This document shows, one piece after another, positions 446-44,198 of a DNA stretch of 47,848 bases. The first letter of the stretch is position 1. Each line of letters opens with the position of its first letter. The notes under the pieces were generated by a model. The model saw only the letters and a list, made by a program, of their open reading frames with translations. It had not been told where the DNA came from and made no database searches. The translations under genes were made by a program, and so were the position numbers. Source of the stretch: Psammoneis japonica (lineage: Eukaryota); assembly GCA_008632985.1 (NCBI GenBank), contig QPGO01000132.1:186001-233848 (forward strand). Direction: 5' to 3'.

Positions 446-1567
446 ATGGCCAACAACATCGATTGCGCCGCTGCAGCCCAGTGCGGACTTGCTGTCAATG
501 ACGATGGCGGAACGCATGAACGTGGGAGGGCATGTGGTGTGGAGAAGAAGATCGAAGTTCAGAGGGTCTGTCAATCGCTACAAGACATGTCAGAGAGTGG
601 CAGGCCAAATCTAACAGAAGTCGCTCGGGTTTGCAGGGTTGACCGCAAATTTGCAGTCAAAGTGGAACGAGAACTTGACTGTTGCGGCCAAGTGCTTCAC
701 CCGCGAAAGATTCACCAGAAACGAATGTGTGGTCCAGGCGTCAACACAATTGACAGTCTAGATGCTTTTGTCCTTCTGACTCCACATCTGGACGAGCCAA
801 GTCACTCGCTGTCTGGCTGTTGGGAGAATCTGTGCAACCTCACAGGAGCAGTGGTTTCGAACGCTGCCATCAGCAGATTCTGGAATTGTGCATTTACAAC
901 AAGCGGGAAACTTTGCAAGCCAAATCTTGTTCCCTGTGATAAATTCAAACCCGACAACATCCTACGAGCATGCGAGTTCATGATGGTTGTCGCTGAGGTT
1001 GATCCACGGAGGGTCAAATGCGGAGATGAGAAGCTGCTGAAAGGTTCAGAAGTGTGTTGCTGAAGGACAAGGCGAAATGTGCTAATGGGGGAAGTCCCAC
1101 CATCCTTCACATCCTCTGATTTTCGCAACACATGCCCCATCATCGGCTTTTGCGGCATCGACACAAGGACCCACCCTGTGCGTTGCCAGATCCATGACGA
1201 GCCGAATGATGCGGAACAGTTTGCAATGGAGATTGAGCATGCAGTGCATCGGGGCTTTCTCAGAGGTGGTGACATCCTTGTTCTGGACAATGCAGCCTGC
1301 CACGTGCGTGGTGAAAATGCGGTTCTTGAAGAATGGCTGTGGACGGAGCATGGCACATTTGTTTTGTTTCTTCCAACGAGGACCCCTGAATGGAACCCTG
1401 CAGAACTTGTGTGGCGTCAACTTGTGACACAGCTCAAGCACCATCCGATCTGCAGGCTCCGCTCGCACACCGAGCATTCCACCGCCTGTGCTGCCCATGA
1501 CGTGTCATCCCAAATTGCGCATGACCAAGTCTTCTGCATGTGCAGAGCATGTGGACATGTGTCTTAA
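446..1567 (+). pseudogene. IS630/Tc1-type DDE transposase, inactivated
   Basis: ORFs 446..1063 and 1079..1567 are in one frame, split by TGA at 1061..1063 (probably from CGA). Motifs GDEK...LDNAACH...LFLPTRTPEWNPAELVW, with 38 residues between the second D and the E. No Tyr in either ORF. Confidence 0.85.
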
Positions 1568-2723
1568 GCTTGTTCTACAATAGAATGCTCCACTGTAGAA
1601 TGCCCTGCAACAGATTGAGGTGCAATTGAAACTTCCAGGCCCCAGGATTCAGCCCCCGAACACCCGGGTTTCAAGCCCACTCCAATGACGACAACAAAAT
1701 GCCAGCGCAACTCCAGCTGTTGGACATGTTGTTTGAAGGGCAAACAGTCATTGACATCCTGACTAAAACCTCTGAGCAATGATCAATGGTCATGGCGAGT
1801 CAGAATTACAGCTGTGTTCCGCCTCAAGCTTCCGCGTGCAACAGGGGGGGTCAAAATTGCCCATTTGTCACAGCACGTGGAATCTACGTAGATTCTGGTG
1901 TTGACCTTGCTGCAGGCACAGTCAGCAAATGACCCGACAATCACAGCACGCAGGGCCTACGTAGGTCATGGCATTGAACTTACCGTTAAGTCTTGTCAGT
2001 GCATAACCTGCGTGATCACGACTGAAACTTGTGGTGGCGATTCGATTCTTCCCGGGACTGACTGGCGACGAACTGACTGTCACAGTAGAATTTGTACCAG
2101 GTGCTGCGGAAGCTGTGATTAGCAAGTGGGCTGTGATCCAAGAAGGAATCTGGAGCCATGAAGGGGGTGGGGTTTGGAGGCGGAACACACAATTAATTCG
2201 GACTCACCTGTTGGATCTTTCCGTTCAATGGCTGACGGCTGGTGGAAAACCCGGGACTTGCTGTGCTGGGAAACACGTGCGTTTTCCCGCAAAAAATGTC
2301 TCTAAAAATTGATGCTGCTTTGCCGTTGCGAGATTGGATCCATTCGATTCAAATTGTTGATCCGAAAAATACGGCAGTTAGACTTTCACCCCGGCGAGAG
2401 CCACAAAAAGCGCAAGATGTGAGCATTGTCGGTTTCCTGTCCTTTGGGACAATGTCTTGCGAGAACAGAGCAGGTGTGTGTTGTTCATGGTGCCGGGTGT
2501 TTGAACATGAAACTGGCTTTTCGCGGAGCACTGTTGCACGAGAAAGCACAAGGGACGACATGATTTTTAGTGACAGATCTACAACCAATGGAGTTGGGTC
2601 TAGATTGAGACACTGAACAGTGCAATGGTGACAAGATGCAAACACAGTCACCAGCACAGAGAGTCTTGATTGGTTTCAAATGCATCAAGTGGGTTCACGC
2701 AGGAGTTCTGCAGAAATTCGTCT

Positions 2724-4440
2724 TCAAACATCCATGCCTTCGCGTCCAACAGAAGCATTGTTCAAAGCAACATCCTCGCAGACTTGCAAACTTTCAGACT
2801 CGTTGGACAATGAGAAGGATGGTGCAGTCAATGCAGGACGATTCTTTGGAGAACCAGGGAAGGAACATGGCCCCACGCCATTTTGAAAGGAATTCTCCTC
2901 GCCATCAGGATGGCAGTTCTCCTTCTCCTGCGTGCCATTTTCATCAGAATGCACGGGCTCTTCCTCATGTCCTCCATCACACCCTCCATCACATCCATGG
3001 GAGCTGCGACGATCATGGGAGGAGGAGCTGGGAGGTTGGTTTTGGTTGCAGTGGCGAGAGATGCTGTCAGAGCGAGTGTGCTCCCTGTCACTGGTGCGAG
3101 CACTCTCACCATGGCGAGAGACACTGTCAGAGCGAGTGCACTCCCTGTCACTGGCGCGAGCACTCTCACCGCGGCGAGAGATGCTGTCAGAGTGACTGCA
3201 CTCCCTGTCACTGGCGCGAGTGCTCTCACCACGGCGTGAGATGCTGCGACGGCGGTGAGAGCGAGAGTGACTGCGAGAGTGACTGTGACAGTGGCAAGAG
3301 CAAGAACGATTGTGGCAGCGATGGGAATCACTGCAGTCACTCTCACCGTCGCTGGAGCTTGGACTGCGGCAAGAGTGGCTGCGGCCTCTGCTCCCGTGTC
3401 CTCTCGAATGACCACGACGACTGCTGCTGTGGCATCGATTGCGGGAACAACCACGACACCTTGTTTGTTCTTGGTGACAGGAATCATCAGACTGCCTCTG
3501 ACCATGTGGCATTGGACACCCGGAGCCAAGCTTTTTGAGGAAGAAGAGAAAAGGCCAGCGAGTGGAGTCAAAGAAATCAAAAAGAAATGAAAGACATGAA
3601 AGATGCATGAGTGCAGCAAAGAAATGACATGATGCTCACAACGAACTGCCCATTGGAAGCATGCAGTGATTGCATGCATTCCTTCTTTGCATCCAAAGCA
3701 TTCTTCTTCTCCTGCTTTTTTGAATCAACTTTGATTTGCTCTTTCACCCTGAATTCTTCGACATGTGACAGGCTCGCTTGTTTCTTCTTTTCACACACGT
3801 CGTCCTGCGAGGCATTGTTGCTGGAGCTCTTGTTCTTCCTGTTGGATTCTTTGGCTGCTACAAGCTGCTGTTTCAATGACTCGATTTGGTTGTTCTTTCT
3901 CTTCAAATCCTTTTCCATGCTCTCCAGCTCCTTCTTGTCTCATCGCGACTGCTCAACCGCGGCATTCTTTGCGCTCTGAATTTCGCAGAACTTGTTTTGA
4001 AGCGTTGCCTTTGACTGGGCCATCTTGACAAGACTGCCATGCATGGACTTCATGTTGTCACACATGGAATCAACAGATGTGGCTGCTGCTGCCTCCAAGT
4101 GTCCATGGCTGTTGTGCTTTTCCACCAAAGTCTTCTCCAATTTTTCAATGCGCTCGTTTGCCAGCACGACTGCATTTGTGCAGGGGGCAACCTTCTTTCC
4201 CCTTGGCTTTGTGACAGCACCCGGCAAGTCCTTCTTGTAAAGCTTGTTCTGTTTTGGAGGCAGCAGTGGCTTCTGAGGTAGCGCAGGAATGTGATTGGGT
4301 GCAGGGATTGACAGTGGTGTCGGCTCGGTTTCGGTGCGCGTCGGAACTTCGGTCCTTTCTCTTGGTGGGTCCCGCTCTGGAGACACTGTTGATGAATCTT
4401 GTGACACAATGTCATCATGGCGACTTGGAGCCATTGCCCA
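2724..4440 (-). pseudogene. Second, decayed ORF inside the Tc1-like element: Pro-rich N-terminus, Lys/Glu coiled-coil, Arg/Ser-rich C-terminus
   Basis: Consecutive minus-strand ORF pieces (3940..4590, 3577..3918, 2724..3608) with coherent low-complexity protein character, broken by stops and frameshifts. Confidence 0.5.
3051..3246. repeat. 60-bp tandem repeat, ~3.3 copies
   Basis: Unit similar to RYGGCGAGAGAYRCTGTCAGAGYGASTGYRCTCCCTGTCACTGGYGCGAGYRCTCTCACC at 3051, 3111, 3171 and partially 3231. Confidence 0.9.
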
Positions 4441-5056
4441 AGGGGTGTGGGAGTGCGACAAGCCGCCGCCGGCTCTCATTTGACTGAGTTTGTTTGTCAT
4501 GGCGTCGTTTTTGTGCTTTTTTTGTGCGTTGCGGTGAGCGGAGCGACTGCAGAAAAAAATCGACGTTCGCGCGGGGGCACCTGCGCGCAAGGCACAACAG
4601 TTGCGATTCTTTTTTTTTCAATCTGGATCTTTGCGCATCAATTGTGCATGCGCGCGTTTGATGCATGATGACGTCCGGCCGGCCGGCACCTGTGGCCATC
4701 CCACGACCAATCAACGCTGCCAGCAGCTGGCTGCCACTGGCTGGCTGCGGCAGAGAGCAACACCCGTCCAACTTGACAGTTGCAACGGGCTTCATTAAAC
4801 CACCTTGGCAAGCTTGTGTGTGGTTGCACCAATCAAGGAGCAACATTGACAACAATGGGAAGCAAAAGAGTGCCCCGCCGCAGTGATCATGTGCGTCTCT
4901 GGTGGCCCACCAGTGAGGTGTGGTGAAAATGATTTCCAATTTCCCATGCAGACCACAAAAGCAATTTCATCAGCAGCAGTTCCTGCCCTGCACCTTGCCA
5001 TGGCTTGCAAAGTGTCGAAACAATGACAACATGCTGTGGAGCTTTGCCAGCGCTTC

Positions 5057-5917
5057 TTGTGGAGGAGTGCAAAAGGAGTCACGGCACCCATTCCTCGTGA
5101 ACCCTCCATCAACAGAAATGACTTGTCCAGCGATGCAGCCTGAAATGGGCAAACACAAGAATGCCGCCAATCCTGCCACCTCTCTTGGCTTGCCCACTTG
5201 TCCCAGGGGCATCCTTTCAATGACAGGTCCAAGACAATGAGAGTGAGTCAAGCAGCAATGCAGTCGACAAAGCAGCGGAAAAGTTGGTCATGATGTGGCA
5301 TCACAACAAGGGAGATGCAAACGTTTTGGTGCCAGGCTCATTTCACACCGTTTGCAAGACTCAACTCTACGAACTTGCAGCACCAATTCTGTGTTGGTGT
5401 GCCTTGGCACAACACAATTCACATGAATGCCATCAGCAGGGGCCCCCCATTCACACACCCAACTCCCAGTTGTCTCTGATTCATGGCTGCCTTTGCAGAT
5501 GTGCAAGTTGTCCCCGACTTGACACATGTGACCCCTGCAACCAACCCAATGTTGACAACACTGCTGGTTGATCCATTGCTTTATTTTGACAGGTGGTTGT
5601 GACATGTGCCATTGTTGGGTGAAATGTCGTGCTCTGAAAGTTGGTCTTCCAGATCATGAACTCAAGATCTTCTTCCATGTGTTCAACAGACTGCCCACGG
5701 GTGTTGGCACCCACATTGTTGACAAGTGCATCTGGTTGTTGCCTCTTGCCAAGAAACTTCATGATTTCAGAAACCAGCATTGCTTGACCTTGTTTTGTTG
5801 AAACATCCACCACAAGCCCGCCACGCCCACCCCCCTGCCTTCCTCCATTGTGTTGAGCACAGCTGTTCAAGTCATCTTGATTTCATCCCCACAAGTCACA
5901 AGACACAACACTGAAGC
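5057..5917 (-). pseudogene. 5'-truncated, hypermutated copy of the tropinone-reductase-like SDR at 19424..20413
   Basis: Aligns to 19424..20249 and retains the intron. The 3' flank also aligns (~4665..5056 with ~19085..19423). [10 protein letters not shown] has become [11 protein letters not shown], and there are frameshifts. Confidence 0.92.
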
Positions 5918-5959
5918 ACACACCTCTGATGTCCTCCAAACCTTGAAACCACTGGCATG

Positions 5960-7511
5960 TCATGTCCCAAAGGCTCAAGCATGCCTGCTGAGCACCACCT
6001 GCTCACTCCAGACCCCCGTTCGGATGCACAAAAATGGGGGTTTGGTTGTGTCAACGACCCCAAGGCCCTCTTGAGGGATCTGGTTGCTTTGGTCATTCCC
6101 AAGTGCCATCTCCTGCTCATCAAGTTGCACAAGAGTGAGAGTGCTTCTTGGGAAAAAATGTGCACATGCTCATGGTGGATTCACTTGGCGGGCAGTCAAA
6201 CAATCCAGACCTGGTGGAAGCACTGTTGCCATTGGCTTGGTGTGATCCACACCTCCACCATGTTGGCAATGATGTTAGAAGAGTGTTCCTTCCAGTGGAA
6301 GCAAACCTCACCATGGAAAACAATGAGATTGATGTCACAGGGGGAGACATTGGCTGGACCGACAAAGACACAATTTGGTCAACCTGAACAAGTCAACATC
6401 TGCATGAGAGAAATCAACAAGTGTGTTGGATCAAAGCACATTGGGTGCAGCATTGACAGTTTCACTGGATGCTCTAGAGCCATTGTCTTTGTTCTTGACA
6501 AGAGCCAGTCTGATGATTTGGTGAGTCAAAACAACTGGGGAAAGGCTGTGGCCATTCATTCTGGGGATCATCTATTTTTTGCATGATCAAAAGGGTGTTT
6601 TTGATGAATGAGCACCCTGTTTTCAAGAACTTGTGAGGCACTTTGATGACAACTCTGGCACTGCAACAATGCATGCCAGCAGAAGTTGGGCACCACAATG
6701 ACTCTTGCACCAGTGATTCAGATTAGCAGGCTCAATGATGTGGGTGCACACACATGGTTTTCAATGAATGTGGTGGGTGACAACTTCTTGTTTTAATTGC
6801 AACAAATTGCTGTTTTTGATTGTGACAAATGGTTGAAATTGGCACCAACACAAGGTCACTTGTTGTGCAGTTGAGCAGGGAACAGTTCATTGCAAAGCAC
6901 CAACCCATGTTGAACTCACAGTTTGGCTCAATTCCATGATGTGCACATTGTTGCTGAGTGACTCAGGCAAAGACAACATTGATGACTGCACAAAGAACAT
7001 GGAGTGGTTTCATGCTCAATTGCAAGCAACATCAAAACATCACTTCTCTGGTCTTGGCTCACATCTCAAAGGGAGACTTCCACTGGCAAGAGAGAGACAA
7101 TGCTTGCAGCTGGGCTCTCACTTTGCACGGAGCACATTCTGTGACAAATCTGCACACACAAGCACAACAGTGTGCTTGCGCAACCATGTTGCTCAGTGCA
7201 TTGAGCACATTGGAGATGATGAAACAATGCCAGCATCTGCAAACCACTTTCCACCACGTGCAGCCAGGACCAAGAGTGGTGCGCACCTTGTTGAGCACAA
7301 CCTGAGAAATTTGACAACTCTCAAGCTGGAGTGGCAGTGGAGTTGCTGTTGTTTGAAAAACTCACAAGCTGGCATCAAAGTTGAGCAATTCAAAGAACCA
7401 AAAAAGAGCAAATTTTGCCAAAGCTGCCCACACGAGTCCATTGCTGAGCATGCTCTGATGAAAAAAGCTTTCAAAGAGTTGGCTGAGTCAGTTGCCAGGT
7501 GTTGTGTTTGA
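5960..7511 (+). other. Heavily decayed coding remnant, probably TE-derived; family not recognised
   Basis: TpA- and CpG-depleted sequence with protein-like plus-strand fragments (5957..6586, 6936..7511). No diagnostic motif seen. Confidence 0.25.
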
Positions 7512-8430
7512 TCCAGCTAAGAAAGCAGAAATTGTTGGGTTGTTTGGCTGGAGCGAGCATGAAATCCAAGAGCTCAAGAAGAAGCTCAAAGTCCAGGGAA
7601 ACTGAGACACGTTGGTGGACAAAAACAACAAGGCATTTGGGCTGCCTTTTTGGGCTTGTGTGTGGGCTCTCAATCAAGCCAAGGTGCAGCACATGTCAAG
7701 CAATCTTGGGTGTGAATGGCAGCTCAGGTGGTGTGGGAAGGATGATGTGTGGTGGATTTTTTTGCTGCAACATGCAAATGAGTGATGATTGACAAAGGGA
7801 AGTGCCAGTTGGTTCTGCAGCAGCAGCTCTGGTGTTGATGCTCTCTGCTCTCCCTGCTTGTTGCGCACTGCACCATGGGAGTGTGACAAATGTGACCACC
7901 AACATAGAAAACTGACACAAAAAATGCACAAAAAAAAACTGTCACGTGACAGTTTTGAGTTGGCGCGGCACTGCATTGCCGTTGGAACACAGGAGGTTCA
8001 GATGTTGGGTGCTGCTCAACTGGGTGTGACACTCGAACAGATGATGGCCAGGATTTTGCAGATTTTTGAATGTTGTTTGTTGAAACATGAGGGTTGTGTG
8101 AAAGCTCTGCACCAGATTGCATGGAATTCCACATGACCGGTGGGCACTGCACCTGCCACTGCAAGTTGTTTGTTTTTGCAACACAACGTGGTGATGACAA
8201 TGATGCTGCTTTCACATCAATGCAGGAGGCAGACCTGTTGGCACAGACACATGTTGAGATTGTTTTCTGACACTGCACATCAACAGGGTTCCAACAGTTG
8301 GCACTGAAAGTGCACAACCTGCTGTGCCAGCATGGCTGGATCAATGCAGTGACATGAGGAGTGACCATTTGTGGTGAAATTGAATTTCCTTGTTGTCAGA
8401 GACAATTGTCAATGCCCCCCCCCCCCCCCC

Positions 8431-11400
8431 CCCCCCCGCAAGTCTGCACATTGTCCATGGCTGCTTTTGCCCATGACAATTGTGTGACATTTTTCCATCA
8501 CAGAAACAGTGAAACAACCATGAAGATTGCTGAGGCCACAAGGCTTGTTGTTGCTGCCGTTCCAGCTGCCTTTTGAGGTGCATGGATGGATGGGGACTTT
8601 GCACCTGAGGCACTGCAACATGGCGGCTTTCTGGGACTTCACAAGTCCAATGTCTTGTCTGCCCTCCAAGATGCCTCAAATTTGGTTGCCCTTCATGCAG
8701 ACAACCACCGAGGATCCATGCTGCTGTGCTGTTTCTCTGCCAGGTGAAGAACTCCATCACAACTGCCATGAAACACATGAGTCTAAAGGATGTTTCCTCA
8801 AATGATTGGAAACAAATGGTTCCTGAGAATGTCCAGAGAAAAGGATGCAACCAAACTCACAAGAACACAATCAGAGTCATGCAATCTGTGAAAATGCAAT
8901 GGTGGCACGACTTTGGTTTTTGTTGGGCTTCTCTGCATGCATGGGAGTTGCTTGAGTGGCAATTGCCAGGCAACACATGATTCTAAGACACCTTTGTGGG
9001 TGTTGCCATTTGAAGCATGGAGCATTTCTGCTGCATGAGCCCAGAATCTAGATGGTCAACACATGATTGGCACAAAGACATGACACTTTCTAGAGCATTT
9101 CTCTTAGACATGTGGAGCATTTCTGTTGGGTGCAACCTGGAATTGAGAGCAACAATGCACAACGATTTAAAATCAATGCACCAACATGACACTTTGTAGA
9201 TTGTCCCCATTTTAAGCAGGCATGCAGTCTTTCCATTGTGCAACCTGGAATCAAGAGTTGTGGTTGGTTGCTCCAAGCATTCCCTGGTTCTTGCTCAAGC
9301 TTCTTCCATCGCATCTTTTTGTTGGCTGCTTCTTCAATTTGGGCAGGGCTTTGAGGCATGAGAGGCATCAGGTGTGTCAGCATGGCATCATTGGCCATCA
9401 ACAGTGAGGTGCAAATGTTGTCATAAAAAAACACTTCTCGCTGGCAATCCTTTTGACTGAACCTCATCAACAGGAGCAAAACAAATGATTTGCAGGAAAG
9501 GATTGACAGCAGGACAGTTGCAACGACCAAACAAACATTTGCAAGATGCAAGACTTTGGCGCAACATGACACAGAACATCAACATTTTGCGACTCACTCA
9601 CTCCTGGCACTGAAACCTTGGTTTTCTTCCGCGCTGGCACCACACATCATGCACCGGGCTTGCATGCTTTTTTTGTCAACTTTGTTTTTTATTTGGCTGG
9701 GCTTGGGCGAGTTTGGTGCATCATTGCCTGGCAACGGCAACATTGCAGCACACTGTTGTTGTCATCACAAAAACACTTTCTGCTGGTGATCCTTTCCACC
9801 AAACCTCACCAACAGGAGTCAAACAAACAATTTGTCAAAAACGATTGCCAGCAGGAAAGCTGCAACAAGGATGGCATGCAACAGACTCAAGCAGACATTG
9901 TTGCGGCAACAACACAAGAAGGGTTGCGTTCCACTCACAAAAGTTGCTCAATCGGATGGATGTGCAGACTCACGGGGGGTCCTCATGAACACAACCCTTC
10001 TCGTGTGTTGTCACCATGACAACATCTGTTTGAGTCTGTTGCATGCCATCTTCAATGCAGCTTTCCTGCTGGCAACTGTTTTTGACAAATTGTTCACTCT
10101 GCTCTTGTTGGTGAGGTTTGGCAAAAAGGATTGCCAGCAGAAAGCATTTTTCGACAACAACAATTGCATCTCAATGTCGCCATCACCAACCAGCAGCGAC
10201 ACCCCAAACGCCTCCAAGCCCAGCCAAATGAAAAGAAAAATTGACAAAAGGAAGCATGCAATCCTGGTGCACAATGTGCAGTGCTGGTGCAGAAGAAAAC
10301 CAAGAAGGCTCCAGTGCCAGGAGCAAGTCGCAAAATGTCAATGTCCTTTGTCATGTTGCGCCAACATCTCGCATCTTGTGAGCATTCGTTTGGTCATTGT
10401 GGCTGTCTTGCAGTCAATCCTCTCCCACAAATCATTTGTTCTGCTCCCATTGGCGAGGTTTGATCAAAAGGATTGACAGCAGAAGGTTTTTTATGACAAG
10501 AATCATGCACCTCAATGTCGCCGTTGCCAAGCAGCGATGCAACAAACGCCTTCCACAAGGCCACACAAATGGAGGTGGTAAAGCCGATGAAAAGAAATGG
10601 AGGAAGAGGTGCAAGCAAGAGATGTGGAATGTCTTTGGCTGTCCCTTTGTTGACAGAGAAGTTTTGAATGTGAACACAACCACAAACAGTGTCTTTTGTG
10701 GGTTGGTGGCATCAAACAAATGCGCGCAGTGTGAGAGCCACTGGGAACCAAAAAAGAATGCCAAACTTTCTCCTGTGGGATGCTCGCAATGCCTGCCCAT
10801 CAGAGAATGGCAAGTGCAAGGATTGCAAAAATGGTCAGAGCTGGGACAACTGCGCTGTGACTGGAAGCGCTGCTGTTTGTCAGCATGACAGAGCATTTGC
10901 CACAGCTCCAGAATCCAGGTTTTTATTCTGCAACTCTTGACTCCAGGTTTGCGTTTGACACCGCATCCATGGATTCACCAGGTGAAATTGGCAAAAGTCG
11001 GGCATGGCAAAAAGTGCGCAATTGGTCAAAATTGATCATTGAGTGCAAATGGTGGTGTCTTTGGGGTCCCGTTGGTGAGCCGAACACGCACATTTCTCAT
11101 TTGACCATCATGGGTCCGTCTCAATGGGGGGGTGTCAAAATGCCATGCTTTGACGTGTGAGCAACTCCTGTGCAGCAAAATGCCCAACATGCCTGCTGCG
11201 GTGTGTTTTCTCAGATTGGATGTTTCTGATCATTGTCAAATCGAAAAATGCTCTGCAAATCATTGCATCCTTGGAAGCAAACCCTCTTTTTGGACTCCTT
11301 TGCTTCCTGACAGCTAGAGCAACAGTGCAGTGGCACATCCCACATCCCTTGCAGCATTTGTCTGCACATGGGGCTGCAACCGAATTTTTCTAATTTGATG

Positions 11401-11644
11401 TGCCTCAGAGGGCACGTGAGATTCTGGACTTGTGAAGTCCCAGAAAGCCACCGCGCTGCAGTGCCTTGTGTGCAAGGTGAGGATCCATCCACACACTGTG
11501 CAAGCACCAGCCAGAAATGCAGCGACAAGAAGCTTTGCGGCCCATGCAATCTTCATGGTTGGTTTGACATTGTTGTGATGGAAACACATTGCACATTTGT
11601 CATGGGCTAAAGCAGCCATGGTTGGCGCACAGACTTGCGGGGGG
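8431..11644. mobile_element. Non-autonomous foldback-like element with ~260-bp TIRs and long internal inverted arms
   Basis: 8431..~8690 is the reverse complement of ~11385..11644 (CCCCCCGCAAGTCTG...CCATGAAGATTGC...GGCTTTCTGGGACTTCACAAGTCCA). Internal arms at ~9240..9935 and ~9985..10950. Confidence 0.75.
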
Positions 11645-12779
11645 TCCCCATCAAGGATGGATCTATGTGCTGCGGTTTGTTTTTTGGGAGCTCACAATTT
11701 TTGTAAAAATGAAATGGATTCTTTGTGCTGAATGCACACGCTCACCAAAAACAAAATTTGGGCAACAGGCCGAACTTTGTCCGCTTTAAAGACACCACAA
11801 AATGCATGAACAATGGTTGTGAGCATGCACAACTTTTGCCTTGTTGACAGCAGACATGTCCACAGCCAGTCAAATGCCACTCATCAGATTTTCCCAGAAA
11901 GTTGTGGCCAATCTCCCACAAGAAGCCAGGTTTTAGTGACAGTCAGTGGTTTTTTCGACAACCTGGCAACAGGGCCCGATGAGCGGCATTTGAAGCTTTG
12001 AATGTGCAGCTCATGTGCCAGTGTGAAAGCCCTGAGAAGGGCTTGACGAGTGCATGAGTGCTTGGGGGGTCTCCCAGGCAGCAGGTCAAAACAGCATGGT
12101 GAAGTGTGGGAAAGTGAGCTGTTTTAAATTAGACCACAGCATGCAGATCCATCTCCTCAATCAGAAGGTGCACAAAAAATGGCGTGCAAAAGCCATTTGC
12201 CGGGCGGCATGGTCATCACTCACTCCCCAGCATTCGGGAGATTAGAGGTCTGCACACATGTTGCACATGCTTTTACATTGCATGGAAATCTGTGCACTTG
12301 CACATGCAGAACTCGGCATTTTAAATTTTGGGCATGTGCACAATTTATGAGCATCTGAAAATTTTCCATTGTCCCAAATGCTGGGAGTTCTCGCTTCCAT
12401 GCATTGAGCATTGAGCGAGTGTTGAGCCAGTCCATGATGCATGTGATGGATCACCAGTCCAAAAACATCCATTGCATTCTGTCTGTGCCCGCAGCCTGTG
12501 GTGGTGTTGGTGCTGCCAGTGCTGCTGGTGCTGCTGGTGCTGCTGCTGCCAACCATTGTTGCATCTCATTCACAGCCAGAACACCAGACCAATCTCAGTT
12601 GCCTGCTTTTAAAGCCATTGCTCATGATGAACCCCAAAGCTGCTTTGGAGATAGAAGAAGACTGACAAGAGGCCAAGATGCACCTGATGGGTGGGGGAGA
12701 TGTCTCCAATCATGCTGCGGCACCACAATCCAAGGAAGACAAGGACGCCCTGATTGCATCACTGCCAAAGAAAAATGCA

Positions 12780-14567
12780 GAACCAAAGGCAAAAAATGCA
12801 GCATTGGACAAGAAAAGAAGTGTGCAAGAGTTGCTGAGAGTTCACCATGGGACACCCCACATGGAAAAAAAACACAGCAGCAAAACCTTCAGTTGGCAGT
12901 GCAAGCATTCTGCGCAGCGCACAAAAGTGCAAGGAACCAGAATCAAAACGAAGTGTGGCAGAGGAAACATCCAAGAAGATGTCGAAGATCATCATTGACA
13001 AAGAAAGTGACAGCAAAAAGCAACAGCATTTGCCCGCAGAAATCGAAGCAATGCAGAAAAAGGCAATGATCTGTCTGAACAAGTTTGAGGTGAATCTCAA
13101 AGATCCAGAAGGAGATTTGATCAAGAGCAAGGTCACTGTCGAATTGGCAGAGAACAGCACAAATGAGGAGGCCAAATTGCAACATTTCAATGAGGCAAGC
13201 ATTTCCAGACATGTGTCGAATGTCCTGCATGATGTGCTGCAATGCCTGCAGATGTCCTTGACCACCAAAATTGGCCAATGAATCTCTCCTTTTTCCATGC
13301 GACCAGACATTGTTGTCATTCACTGGAAATGTAGAATCATTCTGGTGATTGAAGTCAAGAATCCCGGCAAGAATGGCAAGGCAGTTGTTTGTAACAGCAT
13401 TGCTGCCAGCCAAGCCTGCAACCATGCCATGGGACTGCAACAGATGGGCACAGATCACCCGTTTGTCTGTCTCTCCACCTGTGATTGCACGCAAATTGGA
13501 ACCCTGAAAGCTTCCTTTTTTGACATTTTTGAACGGGCAACTGAGCTTCTTGCGCGTTGACCGATTGCAAAGGCTTTTGACTCAACAATCAGCTCAAACA
13601 AACCAAAAGTCAGCCCCACGAAGCAGGGAAAACTGACAGAAGTTCCTTTTGATTACTCCCGCACCAACGTTTGTGACATGGATGCAGACGAGACCAACAG
13701 GGACGAATCCGTGACATCAGAGAAATGCATCGTCATTTTTCAGAAATCTTTGAGTGCTCAAACATGTTCCAAGCCCTCCATTTTGCAGCTGCTTGTGGCA
13801 TTGTGGCAGTTGAACATTCAACAAACAACAGAAAGGAAAATCTCATGCCCTCAGAAGGTGAACGAGTCACCACACGATCCATTGCTGTTGTTCAGGAAAA
13901 CTCGCTTTGCTGGCAGAAGCTTGAATGCAGAGCAACCTGCATGTTGAAGTGCACATGGCAAACCAATCTGAAGGTGCACTTGCATTGTGTTTTGGGACAA
14001 GGCCACTCTGGAAAAGTTTGCCTTGGTTCTGATTCTGCAGGTTGAATGTTTGCCGTCAAGCTGTGTCTTTTTGATGCAGCAATCTTGGAGTCCTTTCGAG
14101 CCGTTGACAATGAAAAAACGAAAATGACTCAGAAGCAAAGAGTGGCAAGAGTCCGCAACAGCAAAGCTGAAAAGTGGAAGAATTTTTACCCCTCATGCAA
14201 GGAAGCGATCTGTTGGGGAGAACTTTTTGGCGTGCCATGCTTGGCCATGCCTTGCGTTGCTTCAGTCCCCATGAATCGCTGCAAGGCCCTTCTTCCAAAG
14301 GTTGAGAAGGAGCTGAAAAGACTTTCAAACAAAGGCTTTGCTTGTGCCGACCGCGATCTCCACTGGCATCACATCGGACCACAAAAGGACCGTGATGATG
14401 GAGAAGACAAAATCATGTTGGTTGATTTGGAATCAACAAAACCAAGGCAAAAAGACAACAAAGCCCATGCCAATCACGTCTGCCTTCTTGAGTCAGCCAT
14501 CAAGCAGTTGAGAGAACGCATGGAAAAAGAGTGCATCAGCACTCCTCAGGAGCTGATTCATGCTTGA
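12780..14567 (+). pseudogene. Decayed PD-(D/E)xK nuclease plus protein-kinase-like gene (Crinkler/CRN-type REase-kinase architecture)
   Basis: RPDIVVI...ILVIEVKNPG (nuclease motif), then LGQGHSGKV, FAVKL, DRDLHWHHIG and IMLVDLES (kinase-like subdomains). Several stops and frameshifts. Confidence 0.65.
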
Positions 14568-14899
14568 TTTGGAATGGTTTTTGTTTGACCGCTTTGACGC
14601 TGACTCCACTGCTTGTCACATCCTCAAGCATTGAAACCTCTGGCCGCTGTCCCACAATGCTTCTGTCAGCCTTGCGAGCAGTGTTGCCTGACATTGGAGG
14701 AAGCAACCTGGCATTTCAGACCTGCAAAGGTTCCTTTGTCTTGCTCCTCATTTCACTTTTCCATTCAAATGGTGGGACAGATGTTGTCCACATTCTGACA
14801 TTGACCACTGCATTCCTCATTGTCGCGTTGCCCTGCAGCTGTAGTTTGGCACAATTGATTCACTCGTCAGACCAATTTCTGCAGTTTTGGACCTTGTTG

Positions 14900-17800
14900 C
14901 TGAACGGCCAACCAGTGCAGCAATGAATGGTGGCAAAGACACTTTAGACTCACATCATGAACTCTCAATTGTGCCATCAGTGTGCCTGACAGAAGCAATG
15001 ATGATTGCAGCAGAGTCTAAATTGTTTAGATGTGCTAGAGCCTGTGCTTGGAGGTGGTCACAGAGCTCTTGGAATCTTCAATGGTTCAATGAAATGCATG
15101 CCCCATTTCACCTGCAAATGTGTGTTGAGTTCCCGCAGTTTGGACCAAGACTTCTCATTCCGGGAAATGGGGAACTTAACACCCAACATTTGGTGCACTC
15201 CCATGTTAAAAACAAGCCCAAAAGATGACAATTCCCCACATTCAGGCATGGACGTGAAGTCGTTGGCACACGGCAGCACCCCTTGTGCTGCCACTGCCAT
15301 CTTGGCTGAAGTCCAGAGAGTCTGTGGGGGGCACTGTCAGGAGTGACAAGTGTGCCTGCTTTGTTCATTCCTCCAGCAGCGCTCAAAATTCTGTGCAGAA
15401 CCCCAAGCAAATTGATGTGATGTTGGTGTTGGCAATCCTGATCAAAATGAGAGGCACAGGTGCCCCACTGGTGCAGCCATCCAGGAAGGCTGTCAATGCT
15501 GGGCTGTCCTCCATCAACGTTGAAATGATGAGAAAGATGCAATGTCCAGAAGGTTCAAAACAGACAAACATCCTGGTGCCAATTTTGCACCATTGGAAGC
15601 GCCATGGGATTGGCGGCAGAACTAAAAAGTTGACTGTGTTCTGTGTCAGCATGGATGAAAGAATGAGTGCAAGTGGTTGCCGCAGGTGGGTCCATGCCAC
15701 CCTGCACACATCAAATTCCAGGAACTCGACAAGGTGGGGGCTTGGAAACAAATTTTGTTCTCTCAGAGCCAGCCCAGTGCTCTCTTGGCACCATCATCAC
15801 CAATGTGATGACACCTTGCCTCCACAAATGTTGGGTCATTTCCAACTGCTTGCTTGCCAATGTTCAACACATGTGGCTGCAGGCTCTGACAAAGCTGTGC
15901 AACCCAAACTCAAGTGCAACACCATGGCTGCTTCTTGGAGCTGGAGCTCATTTTTGATGCAGACTGGGAGCTCTCTCCTCTGGTTCCTTGTGCTGTCTGT
16001 GTGTTGGATGCCACATGTGGCTGCATGGAGACAACAATGATGCAGTGCCGGCAAATGCAGAAGGAGCTGAATGCAAATGTTCAACAATGTGTGGGGACAC
16101 TGAGGTCTGCGTGGAACAGGCACTGTGACAAAGCTTGTGGATGACTGTCAAACACCAGCCATGTGACCCATGAGGTGCTGACTGGTCATTTGCACAAGCT
16201 GAAGCCAACCAGAGAGAAACAACAAGGCAGTTGAACCTTGTTGCTGTTTTGATTGCAACACAGCTGTTGCAGTTGAAACAATTAATTTGTTTTTGCAACA
16301 AGAGGTCATGTCTCTGTGCCACTGTGGCTGCACCCAACCCTGTCAACTGCAAGACCCCATCTGAGTCCATGCCTGATTCCCTCACTGGAGACTGCCAAAG
16401 TTCATCTGAAACCATTTTCAGTGATGGGGTGCTCATTGCTGGCAATGAGGTCCTGAAGGCGATTGTCTGCTCACCACACACTGTGCCACCACACTGGAGC
16501 TCACCACGCCATGGCATGATTGCTCCTGCACACATGGCTCCGACGTCAATCTGGGCAACCAGGTGACAGTTGTCATGTGGCCAGCCAACCCTTTCATGAG
16601 GACTCAGCCCACAACATGCCAACCAAGGGGATGTCATCCAACTGGTGGGAGAGCACTGCAGCCACTTTTTGATCTGGCATCTTCTTTGCCAGTTTGTCAG
16701 CTTGTTTCTTGGTTTGATTTTTTCTTTGTCTTTCTCTTCACCTGTGTTGCTTCTGTCTTTGTTGTTGGTCAGTTTCTCTTTGTCACCACCAGATGACTTC
16801 CTTTTGGCAGCAGCCTGCTTCTTGGAGTTTTGTCCCTCTTTCTCCAGCTGGCTTGAATGCCCCAGGGATCATCTTCCAAAATCTGTTTCATCTTTTTGTT
16901 TTGACAAGAAGCAGTGGCGCCTGTGTCTGGGTTGTGTGCCACATCCTGATGCACTGCAATCCCATGCAATGTGAGCCAGCATGCAGACTTGACTCCCAGC
17001 AGGTGCGGGCACTCAGCAACAAGGTTGTTCATCACCTGCATCACTGGAGCACAGCTCTTCTTTGGAAAAGCAATGACAAGGATGGAGGTGCTGCTCCATT
17101 TCATGTTGATGTGATGGATCAATGGGATCAGCGCAGCCCCAATTTGCCCTCAGGATCTTGGATTCTTTTTTGCATGACAAGTTGATGGTGATTGATCTTT
17201 TGACAATTTGAGTGGGGCAGTTTGGCAATGAAGCTGCGTTCCATCTTGCTGATGATGTGCTTGCAGAAGAAGTGTTGGCACTGTCACAGTTCATTTGTGA
17301 GTGTTGTCCAGAGCACACCGCATGGCACGAGAGGAATGGCAAAGTGCATGTCTCATCTGCAGTCCCATGATTGTCTTCCTGGCACCCACCCTCCATGGCT
17401 TTTCCAATGCAATCTTGGCTTGAAAGGCATGGCAAGCCTTGACAACAATGCGAAGTGCCTCCGGGTTCTTCTTGGGGTCGTCCCAATTGCAGGTTGGATG
17501 TTTTTCAATTGGCTCTGCAGTGGCTTTCCCCATTGGAGGCCAAGGCAATTGGGCTCACCACCTTGACCCAGAGCTTTCTTGCAGATCTGGCAGTGAAGAG
17601 TCTCTTCATTCACAGTCTTGGTGCTCAACGCAAAGCCAGCCAATGCATCCTGAGTTCACAGACTGGCAGGGCACTGGCTTTCTTTAGATTGTGAGCTTGC
17701 CTCCCTTCACATCCTCAAATCTTCCCATTGGTTCAGTGCCATGTTCTCTTTTGTTGGCATGCTTGCAGTTTCTTCCTGCAACAAGGACTCAGATCTGACA

Positions 17801-18750
17801 GCATGTCATGTGCTTTTGGTTTTGGTTTGGGCATGGGTTCAGGCAGTTGACTCCCAGGAAGATGCTCAGAGTTTCCCGCTCCTGTGCTTTGCCCTCAGGA
17901 ATGTCCTCTGGAGCAAGCCACATGCCAAAGGTTTCTTGGAGCTCTGGATCCCATGTGCCGATGGCGACATGTTTGCTGAGAACTTTGTTGGATGACTTCC
18001 AGGCCTTGTTGGGTTAACTTGGTCACCACACAGAGGGGGTCTTCAGCTTTGGAGGCACTGCAATGAATGCACTGCATTGGATTTCAGAGTGGGGAAGGCA
18101 ACTCAGCCTTTTTCTGTTTCTTTGTCTTTCTCCTCTGCATCTTCCACCTCCTTGTCTTTTCTGCCTCCTCTCCCACTTCTTCTTCATCCTCCAACTGCAA
18201 GCAACAATGCTTGCTTGTGAGCTGCTCTGCAGGAGTGTTTTCTTGCTCTTGTTGAGGTTCTGAGTGCTCACTTCCTTTTCCTTGGAGTGGTGTTTCTTCT
18301 GTCTCTTCCATGACAACTGAGGTGTCGACATGATTTGCGCTGGTCAAGGAGTGTAAAGGGTCATCCACTTCCTCTGACTTTCCCTCTTTTTCTGTTGCAT
18401 CAGACTCTTGAACATTGTTTGCACAGTTGGCTGTTGTGTCTTTGGCAAAACCTTCACCCTGGACTTGCTCTTCTTCACTTTCCAGGTTGTCTTTCTCTGT
18501 GACCTGTGACACCTGTCTCATTTTCTGGCTCCACTTCATCAGCTTTCCCTCTGCTTGTTGTGCAGTGGTCGTGTGGGTTTGGGGAGTGACAAGTGTTTCC
18601 GTGGTGTTGTTGCCTGTTCAACAACTTTGTTCTTGTCGTCCTTGTCGTGTTGCTCCTTGAGATTTTTCCTTTGCCATTTTGTCCTTTTCCTTTTATCTTG
18701 TTGCACCCTTTGTGGGTTTTTCTTGCCGCCGGAGTTGTTGCATTTTTTTC
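14900..18750 (-). other. Long decayed coding remnant (Glu/Lys-rich N-terminal part), probably a retro- or DNA-transposon relic; family not assigned
   Basis: Chain of broken minus-strand ORFs (18539..18937, 18084..18539, 17291..17548) in sequence depleted of TpA and CpG. No firm catalytic motif recognised. Confidence 0.3.
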
Positions 18751-19423
18751 GGCCCATGGTGCAATTTTTAAGGGTGGCGTTAATGCGTGCACGCGAGTCA
18801 TGCACCAGCCACACCCGTGGGCTTGGTGACAAGCACCCGCATCGGCATGAGCAAGGCATTGCGTTTGAAGTGATTTTCGTCCGTGTCATTTCCACGCAAG
18901 GTCGCCTGTGCAACACTGGCTTCATGCAAGAATGCAATCCAAGTACAGACCTGAAGGAACAGCAGCGGCGTCTTCATCATCGTGGTTTTTATGCGGTGCG
19001 TACAATGTTGCGGTTTGCGTTTGCGATTTTTTGATCTTACGAACAGCACTTCTCTGTGCTCTAGACTAAGCCATTTCGTTTGACGTTGACGTCCGTCCGG
19101 CGTCTGTGTGGCCATCCGACGACCAACGTTAGCAACATCGCCCACCTTGATAGTTGCAAGGGGCTTTATTAAACTATCTTACCAAGCTTGTGCATAGTTG
19201 CGCCAATCAAGGAGCAGTATCGACACCAATAGGAAGTAAACGAATGCCGTAGTGATTATGTTCGTCTATTTTATCAATTTGCGTTTCGGAATAAGGTGAA
19301 AATGATTTCCAATTTCCCATGCAGACCGTAAAAGCAATTTCATTAGCAGTAGTTCCTACCCAGCACGTTGCCATGGCTTGCAAAGTATCGAAACAGCGAT
19401 ACCACATGGAGCTTTGCTGGTGC

Positions 19424-20413
19424 TTATGGAGGAGTGTAAAATGAATCATAGTACCCATTCCTCGTGAATCCCCCATCAACGGAAATGACTTGTCCAGTCA
19501 CATAGCCTGCAATGGGCAAACACAAGAATGCCACCAATCCTGACACCTCTCTTGGCTCACCCACTCGTCCCAGGGGCGTCCTTTCAACGACAGATCTAAG
19601 AGAATGGGAGTGGTCGAGCAGCCATGAAGCGTATAAAGCAACGGCAAGGTTAGCCATCAAAACAAGAGACATAAAACATTTTGGCGCCAAGCTTATTTCG
19701 TACCGTTTGTAGGATTCATCCTTGAGCACTTGCTGTGCCAAAGCGGTGTTAATATACCAAGGAGTAACACAGTTCACACGAATTCCATCAGGCCCCCATT
19801 CGCATGCCCAATTCCCAGTTATCTGATTCATGGCTGCCTTTGTAGATGCGTAAGGTGTCCCCGACTTGATACATGTGACCCCTGCGACCGACCCAATATT
19901 GACAACACTACTGGTTGATCCATCGTTGCGTTTCAACAAGCCGTGACATGCCGTTGTTAGGTGAAACATGCTCTGAAAGTTGGTCTTCCAGACGAACTCA
20001 AGATCTTCTTCCGTGTATTCGACGGACGGCTTACGGATGTTGGTACCCACATTGTTGACGAGTATATCTAATCGTTGGTCCTTGCCAAGAAACTTCTTGA
20101 TTTCAGCAACCAGTGTCGCTCGGCCTTGTTTTGTTGAAACATCCGCCACCACGCCTACTACATCCAATCCCTCCTTGGTCCATTGTTGAACACAGCTGTT
20201 CAAGTCATCTTGATTTCGTCCACACGTCAAGACACGACACTGAAGCGTGGATGCCAATTCCGTCACGACGGCATGGCCAATCCCCTTTGTGCCTCCAGTC
20301 ACAACCGCTGTCGATTTCGGTGGCAGTGCCCAACAAGCTATTTCTTCTCCCTTGACGTTGAGAATCATCATCATCGTTGTCAGGATGACGAAAATTAGCT
20401 GCAAAATCGTCAT
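19424..20413 (-). CDS. Tropinone-reductase-like short-chain dehydrogenase/reductase; one 108-nt intron (19596..19703)
   Basis: [36 protein letters not shown] and GQVISVDGG motifs. The in-frame GTACGA...CTTAG intron explains the insertion between YKR and SVVERTP. Hydrophobic N-terminus. Normal TpA content. Confidence 0.92.
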
Positions 20414-26931: not shown

Positions 26932-27429
26932 GAAGCTGCGGGAAAGTCAGGTTATGAGCCAAAACTAGCGCTCTGATGCTGTCGTGAAACAAGACTGTGT
27001 CGTGCGCTGGGTACACCATCCACGACCCCATGTTGGCGGAAACAGTCTGCGTGCGGTTCACGTGAAAGACGGCAAGACCGTCGATTTTTTCAAGAGAACA
27101 AGACGATTTCGGCCCTCTAGTTCAAGTTTAAGCCTAGGACCAGATTTAATTCTTGACAGGGTATTGCCACCACAATTGAGAGCCATTGAGCAGCCAGTTT
27201 GCATGATGGCAGTGACGCAGAAATCTGATGGAAAGAAAACGCAAAAATGAGTGCGGTGCGGTGCTGCATTTTTGTCTGCGTTTGGAATCCCTGTCGCAGG
27301 CTCCAGCAGCTTACAACAGATGTATCATGCTACAGTGTCTAAGTGCATGTCATGACTAATGAAAAGAAACAGTTTGTCATCCATTAAAAATGGAGCCAAT
27401 GCAGATTACAGCAACATGCTGTTGCGATT

Positions 27430-28283
27430 CAATCCCTGCAAAATTGCGACCCCGACTGAACCTTGTCCGGCTTCGGCAATGGAACGTCTTCAACTTTTGG
27501 CTCCACATGGTGAATCCCACTCGTGCTCTTTACATGCTCTGGGTCCTCCGCTCCGTAGCCGTCATTGGCTTCGACCCTCTCGTTCTCTCCCAAACAGTGC
27601 TTGACAGAGTGACGGAAGATTTCGAGATCGGGCCAATCTCCACAAGGAGACGGCCGTTGATCCACACAATGTCGCCGGTCAAAATGCACACACAAACTTC
27701 ATGCCGGAGGCCAGCCTTTTTGAACTTGAAAGAACAAAATGCCTTTGGGTTTTTCCCTTGGCTGGTTGCTTGACAATCGGCACAATCGACTGTCACCAAG
27801 CAGTCGAGGCCCTTGTCTCCAACGAGACGATTCGACCACACAATCTGTGAAACCCGCAGAGGAAAAGGTTAGACTGAGCATCATTCACATGACACAATCA
27901 GGCTGAAAACTTGCCACTTCGAACTCCAAACACGAAACTCGGTCAACAAAGAACCAACTCCACTTGCAAAACGTCTGTTCGTCAACTCCGCCGCATTTGC
28001 AAGCAAGGTCTTCTTCGGTTTTGCATGTTTTCACCAAAAGCAATGCCCAGAGTAGATGAACTGGCTTTGCATGTTTCTCATCTTTATCTGGCTCTGATTC
28101 TGGGTTGGGAATGCCAATCCTCAGCCCAATCCAGACGTCGACACAGACAGCGGGCTCAACAGCAAAGTGAGACATCCACCGTCGGTCGAACACCACTTCG
28201 CTCCCAGTCCACGGGTGGCGGTTCATGATTTCACTGCCAAGTTCAATGAATGTGTCGTGGTTGGGACCCAGCTTCTTCTTCAT
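27430..28283 (-). pseudogene. PIF/Harbinger-type transposase, inactivated; intron 27845..27914
   Basis: HLLWALLLVK, VDEQTFCKW, LVTVDCADC, FKFKKAGLRHEVCVCILTGDIVWING, CGDWPDLEIFRH and ERVEANDGY resemble the DDE_Tnp_4 layout. Frameshift after WING; the C-terminus appears truncated. Confidence 0.8.
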
Positions 28284-28644
28284 GGGGGGTCCTGCCGTGG
28301 CATCACCCTGTGGGCATCGACGACATTGTGGGGTGTCGTTTTCTCCGCAAAACTGGGCCCACCAAGATGGATGCAACACCAATGATTCTTGTGCAGTCTC
28401 AAACATGTGTTTTTTGGCAAGCCGTTAAAAGTCATGTGTTGATGCAGTGCGGTTGTGCGACGACACAGGCAAATGCTTTCGAACTGCTTCGCACAGCACC
28501 GTGATGCACTGCGCTCAACAGCTGTGATTTGAGTTGGAGTTCTTGATCCATCAAGGTTGTGTGATAAAATGCAATGTTTTAGCTTGCACACATGTGAAAT
28601 GTAATTTTTGTATCTCTGTGGATGTGCAATTTTTCAGAATCTGG

Positions 28645-28750
28645 AATTTTGACCGGACTTTTCGATTTTGACCGAAAAAAGAAAGTCCGGTCAAAATTCA
28701 AATTTTCGGTCAAAATGAGCCGAAAAAAAAGAGGCATTTTCGGCTCACTT
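28645..28750. repeat. Cluster of short inverted and direct repeats (TTTTGACCG / CGGTCAAAA), probable TE subterminal binding sites
   Basis: TTTTGACCGGACTTT...AAAGTCCGGTCAAAA, TTTTGACCGAAAA...TTTTCGGTCAAAA, and TGAGCCGAAAA...TTTTCGGCTCA. Confidence 0.6.
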
Positions 28751-29329
28751 CAGTGGCCTGCTGTCTGCAACCAAAGCCCGTTTGACAGCAGGCCGCTGCT
28801 TGTTCAAGGAGCACCACACAACTGCCACTCAGAATCATCCTTCTTCATGTCATCTGTGGATTAAATCTAAAGACATACAAGGTTGCACAGACATGAAAAA
28901 ACTGACCTGAAAATGGTTTTCAGCTCACTTTAGCCTCATTCACATTTTGTGTGATTGCATCAGACGGCAGCACTGAGGTGCTTTCTGATTGCTTGTTTGC
29001 ACAACTCTTTGACAGTGTGTCATTGTGTCATCCAACGGCCTTTCGCATGAAGACAGGAAGGATTGAAGTGACCGGAAAATGAAAAAGACCCATTTGAAAT
29101 TTTGGGCCGAATTCAATTTTTCCGGTCGGATTAATCGGATGTCCGTTGCTTGACCAGAATTCTCTCAACAGACCGGAAATTTGGCGTTGACATCCAATGA
29201 TCACATTCAGTTTTACAGCTGTTGTTGTCAACGTCACTGTAAAAGCTTGCACGCAATTTTGTCGTGTGTCTCTGCGTCACCCACACAACGAAAACGTGGC
29301 ATGGTGCACGCAGGCAGCCCAAACGAAGG

Positions 29330-33022: not shown

Positions 33023-33029
33023 AGGAAGG

Positions 33030-43935: not shown

Positions 43936-44198
43936 ATTCAAGTTTGACAAGAAGCACAGAGATTTAAATGGACTGCTTGCAGTCTTCTCCTCCTTTCTAG
44001 AGTCCATGCGAAAACGATGCTTCGTAATTGAGGATTGCAAATCCAGCGAAAAGACACACGCCAAACCCGACGATGTCCCTTTGGCATCACGAAGTCGTGC
44101 ACCGACGGCAATGGCACCGCCGCTTGCGGACAGAGAAACTGACTCTCCAAACCTGTCACTCGATGTCTCCCCCGTCAAGGATGTGCCCACCTGTTTCC

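Follow-up and report, generated by a model that had tools for sequence, protein, structure and literature searches.

TpA-depleted tracts in a 48-kb window of a Psammoneis japonica contig and the sequence context of the TpA sites that survive in them

The window analyzed here, a 47,848-nucleotide stretch of contig QPGO01000132.1 from Psammoneis japonica (positions 186,001 to 233,848 of the forward strand; GenBank assembly GCA_008632985.1), encodes a Dicer-like protein, a short-chain dehydrogenase, a class I methyltransferase, a zf-CW protein, a CUE-domain protein, and a thioredoxin. Between these genes lie four repeat-rich tracts, 29,850 bp in total of the ~48-kb window, from which the dinucleotide TpA has almost disappeared in favor of TG and CA. 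The few TpA sites that remain are concentrated in the word TYTARA, and whether a site survives depends, on each strand, on the dinucleotide that follows the A. On balance, we think it probable that the tracts record a DNA-level, domain-wide A-to-G hypermutation of TpA, with a two-base 3′ context from which TARA is exempt, and that a strand-reading adenine deaminase was the likely agent.

TpA loss in tracts between intact genes

Within the four tracts (Table 1), the observed/expected (o/e) ratio of TpA is 0.02 to 0.1 and that of TG and CA is 1.7 to 2.0, compared with a TpA ratio of ~0.5 in the genes between them. Counted per 500 bp, the tracts hold 0 to 8 TA and the adjacent genes 12 to 36; in all, 137 TpA are left in the tracts versus 538 in 14,448 bp of neighboring genes, which serve as the background below. 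Tract borders were drawn by eye from the 500-bp TpA profile, and the depletion pattern itself is genuine and strong. Because TAA and TAG stops are lost and only TGA stops remain, the edited tracts are filled with long overlapping frames on both strands, such as 2636-3538 on the plus strand over 2724-3608 and 2828-3679 on the minus strand.

The direction of change can be read from two host genes that occur both as an edited and as an intact copy. The intact dehydrogenase and thioredoxin partners have normal TA and good Pfam matches, a single copy of each duplicate having been mutated, and the edited copies are 81% and 90% identical to them, respectively. With sites that have a gap within one base left out, the 64 TA of the intact copies are represented in the edited copies by 33 CA, 23 TG, 3 TA, and 5 other states. 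The change is an A-to-G substitution restricted to TpA: counted per strand, it affected 60 of 130 A after T, as against 21/239 after A, 20/249 after C, and 13/181 after G, while 1 of 241 TG or CA sites went to TA. In tracts that have kept their CpG (see below), 32.7 TA sites per kb were lost and TGN rose by 33.5 per kb, both strands pooled. The edited thioredoxin paralogue retains an open 208-codon frame (43309-43932, plus strand; Pfam E 2.7e-19) with 12 of its 14 TA changed, and this open frame is no sign of function because the process itself removes TAA and TAG stops.

The two strands are affected symmetrically. TG and CA are at parity across the tracts (3115 and 3142, respectively), and therefore both strands have been hit; along the tracts, no strand bias was found beyond noise. 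Moreover, the process acted in place and after duplication. Between repeat copies that are both edited, the commonest difference is CA versus TG (51 sites), and the units of the tandem arrays differ chiefly by TG versus CA at matching positions. Because of these differences, each copy must have resolved its ancestral TA (or CG) separately, in place, once duplicated. Sorted by flank (30 of the 51 discordant sites have identical flanks), they show no clear class bias, and CpG ancestors confound this comparison. The arrays lie at 3053-3246 (60-bp unit) and 31162-32243 (~300- to 360-bp unit, the last two copies being 97.5% alike), and a nested inverted repeat occupies 8432-11644, with outer arms at 8432-8682 and 11392-11644 and an inner palindrome centered at ~9960.

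The window is contained in two public contig sets of one sample, with no RNA set listed as containing it. Copy number was estimated from contigs of a public run aligned at 80% likeness, so that copies more than 20% diverged are excluded. Single-copy depth is ~55 to 65; depth is 6 to 19 times higher over 1-4669 and 9339-12006 and 2 to 4 times higher over 12007-16675, and it is at the single-copy level over 4670-8004 and 16676-20000. The single-copy portions that fall in tracts (4670-8004 and 16676-18676) are as depleted as the repeats. Most of 1-16675 is multi-copy, and the targets seen include a DDE_3 transposase remnant and two host-gene fragments. Since single-copy stretches are depleted and the partner genes are intact, targeting would be by chromatin domain rather than by repeat pairing. 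Among the aligned copies of the first contig set, differences fall at 1247 transition and 377 transversion places. Many contigs stop at 10492, 11712, or 12153, positions that resemble the ends of elements. Other contigs, from the second run and ~10% different from the window, align at 12563-14934 and hint at the presence of related repeat copies in that set, and another of its contigs spans 19595 to 19704, omitting 108 nt (19596-19703) within the dehydrogenase frame. The omitted segment looks like a spliced-out in-frame intron; for this reason, the second set is possibly a transcript assembly. A degenerate-pattern scan of metagenome contigs for copies of the repeats returned 3 loci, all of them 27-nt chance matches with normal TpA.

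A Pfam scan of 180 stop-to-stop frames of at least 90 amino acids (aa) in the tracts and their flanks found, inside the tracts, the dehydrogenase and thioredoxin fragments, FG-GAP_2, and otherwise weak hits only; no reverse transcriptase, integrase, or viral domain was detected among these frames. Two edited tracts flank the Dicer-like gene, whose protein had no relatives in a search of 5.8 billion proteins. Upstream, it is overlapped by a 389-aa frame with a weak double-stranded RNA (dsRNA)-binding match, so that the Dicer-like region as a whole covers 22625-26667 on the minus strand. A single N (assembly gap) at 44549 is flanked by a 32-nt inverted match (44517-44548 versus 44933-44964).

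Table 1. Coordinates of the tracts, gene copies, repeats, and spared sites within the window
Feature	Position	Strand	Remarks
DDE_3 transposase remnant	1064..1564	+	Partly edited zone
TpA-depleted tract 1	2501..18600		60 TpA left in 16.1 kb
Edited short-chain dehydrogenase gene segment	4756..5917	-	50 TA in intact copy: 27 CA, 18 TG, 1 kept
Spared TYTARA example TCTAGA	6473..6478		Others centered on TA at 8784, 9049, 9091, 9168
Palindromic repeat, both arms edited	9401..10518		Arms 75% alike; CA versus TG the commonest difference (24 sites)
Intact short-chain dehydrogenase copy, polarizing reference	19131..20246	-	Pfam adh_short E 7.7e-45
Dicer-like gene	22625-25678	-	1017-aa frame, PAZ + RNase III domains
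TpA-depleted tract 2	27401..36500		42 TpA left
TpA-depleted tract 3	39701..40800		4 TpA left
TpA-depleted tract 4	43251..46800		31 TpA left; CpG mostly retained
Edited thioredoxin paralogue	43367..43809	+	14 TA in intact copy: 6 CA, 5 TG, 2 kept
Intact thioredoxin copy, polarizing reference	47402..47848	+	Extends past window end

Flanking context of the surviving TpA

The surviving motifs listed in an earlier, sequence-only reading of this DNA are all present, displaced by 5 nt at most, and its claim that survivors concentrate in YTAR is borne out by a count of the NTAN tetramers, over which the residue is not evenly spread. The 137 tract survivors comprise 71 YTAR, 29 YTAY, 32 RTAR, and 5 RTAY, compared with 89, 142, 151, and 156, respectively, among the 538 background TpA (Fisher p=3.4e-16); in the span 5960-18900, the 54 survivors are 34 YTAR, 10 YTAY, 10 RTAR, and 0 RTAY. 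Expressed as a ratio of densities in tract and background, survival is 0.39 for YTAR, 0.10 for both YTAY and RTAR, and 0.016 for RTAY, and the intervals from a 500-bp block bootstrap are disjoint for the two extremes (0.26-0.57 for YTAR and 0.003-0.033 for RTAY). The YTAR excess persists when the flanks of every YR step within the tracts serve as the null (expected 0.239; p=2e-12) and under a first-order Markov expectation of 0.316 (p=1e-6). Partly edited zones totaling 3,550 bp, which did not enter the fits, show the same order, with survival of 0.91, 0.40, 0.35, and 0.16 for YTAR, YTAY, RTAR, and RTAY. To call YTAR immune, as the sequence-only reading did, is nevertheless an overstatement: such sites are only slowed, with a density 0.39 of background and with 6 of 8 mutated in the gene pairs.

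With a separate hazard for each strand, the cumulative hazard is roughly four times as high when the A is followed by a pyrimidine (1.91 vs 0.46; likelihood-ratio test χ2 115.8, p=5e-27), and by trinucleotide the hazards are 2.35 for TAT, 1.62 for TAC, 0.61 for TAG, and 0.32 for TAA. The strands are hit independently: an additive independent-strand hazard model fits the 16 tetramers (deviance 11.1, 12 degrees of freedom [df]), which is consistent with recognition of one strand at a time.

The context does not end at the first base. At surviving TA, the +2 base is A in 53% of half-sites, versus 28% in the background, and half-site survival is 0.40 for TAAA and 0.41 for TAGA, compared with 0.00 to 0.18 for all others. 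Adding the +2 base to the model improves it strongly (χ2 66.6, 3 df, p=2e-14), and in the full model the hazards of TAAA and TAGA are about zero, while those of TACT, TATC, TACC, and TATT are 2.2 to 2.8. The trinucleotide rule TAY is therefore not supported as originally worded, as the +2 base matters as much as the first. Sites with two TARA halves, that is, TYTARA, number 21 in the tracts and 13 in the background (ratio 0.78; 95% bootstrap 0.33-1.78), those with one TARA half 81 and 121 (0.32; 0.22-0.46), and those with none 35 and 404 (0.042; 0.027-0.060). Within YTAR alone, survival with two, one, and no TARA halves is 0.78, 0.54, and 0.14. YTAR as such protects little, because without a TARA half it survives at 0.14, much like YTAY and RTAR; its excess among survivors would be explained by the protection of TYTARA alone on both strands. 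The flank R-A follows 123 of 274 half-sites (45%) at surviving TA, versus 13.7 to 15% in every control YR class, in tracts and background alike. In the held-out transition zones (the 3,550 bp above), the ratios for two, one, and no TARA halves are 1.25, 0.71, and 0.28 (Fisher p=0.001). The protected word is thus TYTARA rather than YTAR, and the trinucleotide rule approximates a longer one that takes in four bases or more. The best examples behind it, TCTAGA, TTTAAA, and TCTAAA, are themselves TYTARA, while GGGTTAAC and CTTAAG are not.

Strand outcomes, CpG decay, and alternative explanations

These observations could be accounted for as follows. The repeat-rich tracts between the intact genes would have been mutated in place, as DNA, with the A of 5′-TA-3′ becoming G and the strand that is hit deciding whether the product is TG or CA. 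Each strand would be hit independently, and the dinucleotide that follows the A would set the rate. Pyrimidines there (TACT, TATC, TACC, TATT) would give the highest rates; a purine at +1 would lower the rate several-fold, and for TARA it would be close to zero. TA would then persist only where both strands read TARA, which is the case in TYTARA. The agent may be a TadA/ADAT2-like polynucleotide adenine deaminase that reads a single strand in silenced chromatin, and CpG decay to the same products would be a separate process that went on more slowly in these tracts.

Survivor counts are blind to the difference between TAY on one strand and RTA on the other, because the NTAN classes reverse-complement into each other; therefore, only the TG or CA outcomes discriminate. 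In the mirror-image explanation, the enzyme would recognize the bases that precede the T on its own strand, with RTA favored and TYTA protected, in which case YTAY should yield CA and RTAR should yield TG. We consider this unlikely. RTAR became CA at 14 sites and TG at 3, and GTAR became CA at 11 and TG at none. Where RA lies only 3′ of the TA (NNTARA), all 5 changed sites became CA, none became TG, and one site was kept. Where TAC stands on one strand only, 23 outcomes are as predicted by the 3′ rule and 8 contrary (p=0.011). With the tetramer hazards, the log likelihood (logL) of the outcomes is -41.0 for the 3′ reading and -55.5 for its mirror image, and with the hexamer hazards -43.0 and -70.7, so that the mirror image fares far worse in both. 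In its favor are the identical survivor counts and the sites with T after the A: YTAT became CA at 5 sites and TG at 2, and 13 of 23 sites with TAT on one strand only are contrary to the 3′ rule. Pooled over RTAR and YTAY, 23 outcomes are as predicted and 11 contrary (p=0.058); pooled over one-sided TARA sites, the unprotected strand was hit 8 times and the protected strand 3 times (p=0.23). Measured against the background proxy, TGC gained 14.5/kb (7.1-21.3) and the other TGN 5.0 to 7.5, and in the CpG-kept tracts lost TARA returns as CARA (+4.9; 0.6 to 9.1) and not as TGRA (-0.1; -5.4 to 5.2). Of the earlier expectation that YTAY becomes TG and RTAR becomes CA, the second half stands and the first does not, the signal being carried by C after the A. 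Strand assignment by the 3′ flank is thus supported for C after the A and not for T.

Several results weigh against the 3′ strand-reading explanation. YTAY became TG at 9 sites and CA at 8; of the sites at which a single strand reads TAT, 10 went as predicted and 13 did not; and where TY lies only 5′ of the TA, the outcomes split evenly (TG 3, CA 3). Used at full strength, the hazards over-predict the outcomes, their logL (-43.0 or -41.0) not exceeding that of a coin toss (-38.8), and the outcome tests draw on 56 usable sites in two gene pairs only. The bookkeeping of TAT is unbalanced, since TGT rose by 5.0 and ATG by 3.5/kb versus 19.5/kb lost, and the ancestral TAT may therefore be overestimated; because of this imbalance, and because the CpG result below runs opposite to the polarized pairs, product bookkeeping is weak evidence, of use for the mass balance and for the excess of TGC. 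The survival ratios use neighboring genes as stand-ins for the tract ancestors, and all results come from one window. In addition, the natural substrate of TadA has G at +2, and G at +2 slows the process here rather than helping it, TACG being slower than TACC and TACT.

CpG is lost in much of the same DNA. Its o/e ratio is 0.05 to 0.4 over ~19.5 kb (5001-18500, 31251-36300, and 39751-40700), yet it is kept at 0.6 to 1.0 in ~6 kb from which TpA is gone (2751-4750, 27501-30000, and 45251-46750). Because of these 6 kb, we distinguish two processes with common TG/CA products, of which that on TpA looks the faster, unless the CpG-kept tracts are younger. Copy number is high in one of the CpG-kept stretches, 2751-4750, with a depth of 490-860 as against ~60. 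In the polarized pairs, 45 of 66 CG changed, 36 of them to CA or TG, and 21 were kept; per strand, C-to-T change is found at 39 of 133 C before G and at 4 to 6% elsewhere. In the CpG-lost tracts, the decay hazard of CG is 0.88 after A, 0.94 after T, 0.57 after C, and 0.34 after G, WCG being faster than SCG. Product counts in these tracts suggest that CG+RA ends as CA+RA (+13.8/kb) and not as TG+RA (+1.3/kb), which the gene pairs contradict (8 vs 2 the other way). Methylation-driven CpG decay of transposons is similar to the TpA process in its products and in the tracts affected; the TpA process is separable from it in the 6 CpG-kept kb, and CpG decay has a context of its own.

This overlap bears on a second explanation, that error-prone repair by a polymerase-eta-like enzyme, in patches within methylated, silenced chromatin, put G opposite T at TA. 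The coincidence of TpA and CpG loss over ~19.5 kb speaks for it, and polymerase eta makes A-to-G errors at WA motifs. Such a signature should include AA, however, and change after A is not raised (8.8%, vs 8.0% for CA and 7.2% for GA). The 6 kb in which TpA is fully lost and CpG kept imply that TpA loss is independent of CpG deamination events, and a near-total immunity of TARA is hard to obtain from a polymerase error spectrum. We regard this origin as no more probable than the mirror-image rule.

A third explanation, which appears less probable again, is that the TYTARA excess does not reflect sparing at all. TA might have been regenerated (TGRA to TARA, through C-to-T change at TYCA on the other strand), retained by selection, or inherited from TYTARA-rich ancestors. 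TG+RA is indeed nearly flat in the tracts (+1.3/kb; -1.9 to 4.6) while CG+RA drops by 12.7/kb, which would fit onward loss of TGRA, and the survival ratios take the ancestral composition of the tracts from neighboring genes. Set against this are the near absence of TA gain from TG or CA in the polarized pairs (the 1 of 241 sites above), the fact that all 3 TA in common with an intact copy are ancestral, 2 of them with a TARA half, and the same order of TARA survival in the held-out, less edited zones. The other YR steps of the tracts have R-A flanks at 14%, as in the background, and therefore the tracts are not generally rich in this context.

The least probable explanation, which we judge very unlikely, is ADAR-like A-to-I hyperediting of transposon transcripts in RNA, fixed by reverse transcription. 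Clustered A-to-G change in repeats, with U favored before the A, is also seen in ADAR hyperediting of repeat-derived dsRNA, and the Dicer-like gene indicates no more than that the window encodes a component of RNA silencing. ADARs act on RNA and leave a one-stranded signature in DNA copies, however, and favor G 3′ of the edited A. Here, both strands are hit (TG equals CA), TAG has a hazard of 0.61 versus 1.62 for TAC and 2.35 for TAT, the tracts continue without a break from one kind of repeat to another and across gene fragments and single-copy DNA, tandem as well as inverted copies came to differ in place through CA/TG choice, and no reverse transcriptase domain was found among the 180 tract and flank frames. 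The preference of ADARs for U before the edited A is described in the Bigelowiella natans preprint (Mettrop et al., bioRxiv 10.64898/2026.01.13.699255).

Relation to known systems and implications

The nearest known case is that preprint, according to which mutation-accumulation lines of B. natans, with 231 de novo mutations, show A:T-to-G:C mutation at TpA only in two silent insertions of viral DNA, each site mutating at a rate of ~6e-7 per generation, and clusters poor in TpA and rich in CpA and TpG occur elsewhere in the genome; its authors propose an ADAT2-like enzyme (bioRxiv 10.64898/2026.01.13.699255). As described there, the process resembles ours in that mutation is confined to TpA, gives TpG or CpA by strand, and is local, the neighboring genome being normal, and in that TpA depletion comes with a gain of CpA and TpG and a DDE transposase is among the depleted sequences. 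Going by the same source, there are also differences. Depletion is near saturation here (o/e 0.02-0.1), compared with a Rho of 0.45 in the NCLDV region of B. natans; our tracts hold repeats, fragments of duplicated genes, and the remnant of a transposase, with no viral gene found, rather than integrated viral DNA; and CpG decays here in the same tracts. The main text of the preprint gives no flanking context rule and does not mention CpG (bioRxiv 10.64898/2026.01.13.699255). Our process would be of the kind reported in 2026 for B. natans, here probably in another lineage.

Repeat-induced point mutation (RIP) of Neurospora and other fungi is comparable in that defense-like transitions in a dinucleotide context ruin repeated or foreign DNA and leave aberrant tracts. 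However, RIP makes TpA from CpA by C-to-T change, whereas here TpA is destroyed by A-to-G change and is hardly gained; RIP mutates both duplicates, whereas here the partner copies are intact; and single-copy stretches are also mutated here.

The tRNA substrates of TadA/ADAT2 have an invariant U33-A34. We infer an adenine deaminase because of the T before the target, as in U33-A34, the YAC and YAY>YAR preferences of TadA-derived editors, and the ADAT2-like proposal for B. natans. These enzymes and editors deaminate A in single-stranded nucleic acid after a pyrimidine, usually T or U, and the YAC and YAY>YAR preferences described for the DNA editors ABE3.1 and ABE8e-YA match the TAY>TAR hierarchy found here (PMC12528748). 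That source describes for TadA/ADAT2 enzymes neither a strict requirement for T, rather than C, at -1 nor an immunity of TARA, and it accounts neither for the TARA exemption nor for the slowing by G at +2 seen here (PMC12528748).

Among the papers covered, a full-text literature search returned no TpA-specific A-to-G hypermutation of DNA beyond the B. natans preprint, and none for diatoms; the phenomenon so far comes from this one 2026 preprint, on one alga, whose main text assigns it no established enzyme. The sole named relatives of the methyltransferase encoded in our window are from the diatoms Cylindrotheca, Fistulifera, and Epithemia (42-46% identity), which points only weakly to a stramenopile origin. 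We suggest tentatively, at slightly less than even confidence, that the window carries the traces of a dedicated genome defense by DNA adenine deamination, a chemical mirror of RIP, outside the sole lineage in which it has been reported and probably in a diatom-like stramenopile, which wipes TpA to saturation in silenced domains and reads TANN on one strand, with TARA exempt.

Edited tracts of this kind are a trap for gene callers, and a TpA residue made up of TYTARA only could flag them. A strand-independent context rule that reaches +2 is the type of fingerprint by which APOBEC and AID signatures are assigned to enzymes, and TpA erasure with a TYTARA-only residue would, if true, be a fingerprint by which to identify the enzyme and to recognize edited DNA in any genome. 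If the host is diatom-like, the TpA process would be old or would have arisen more than once.

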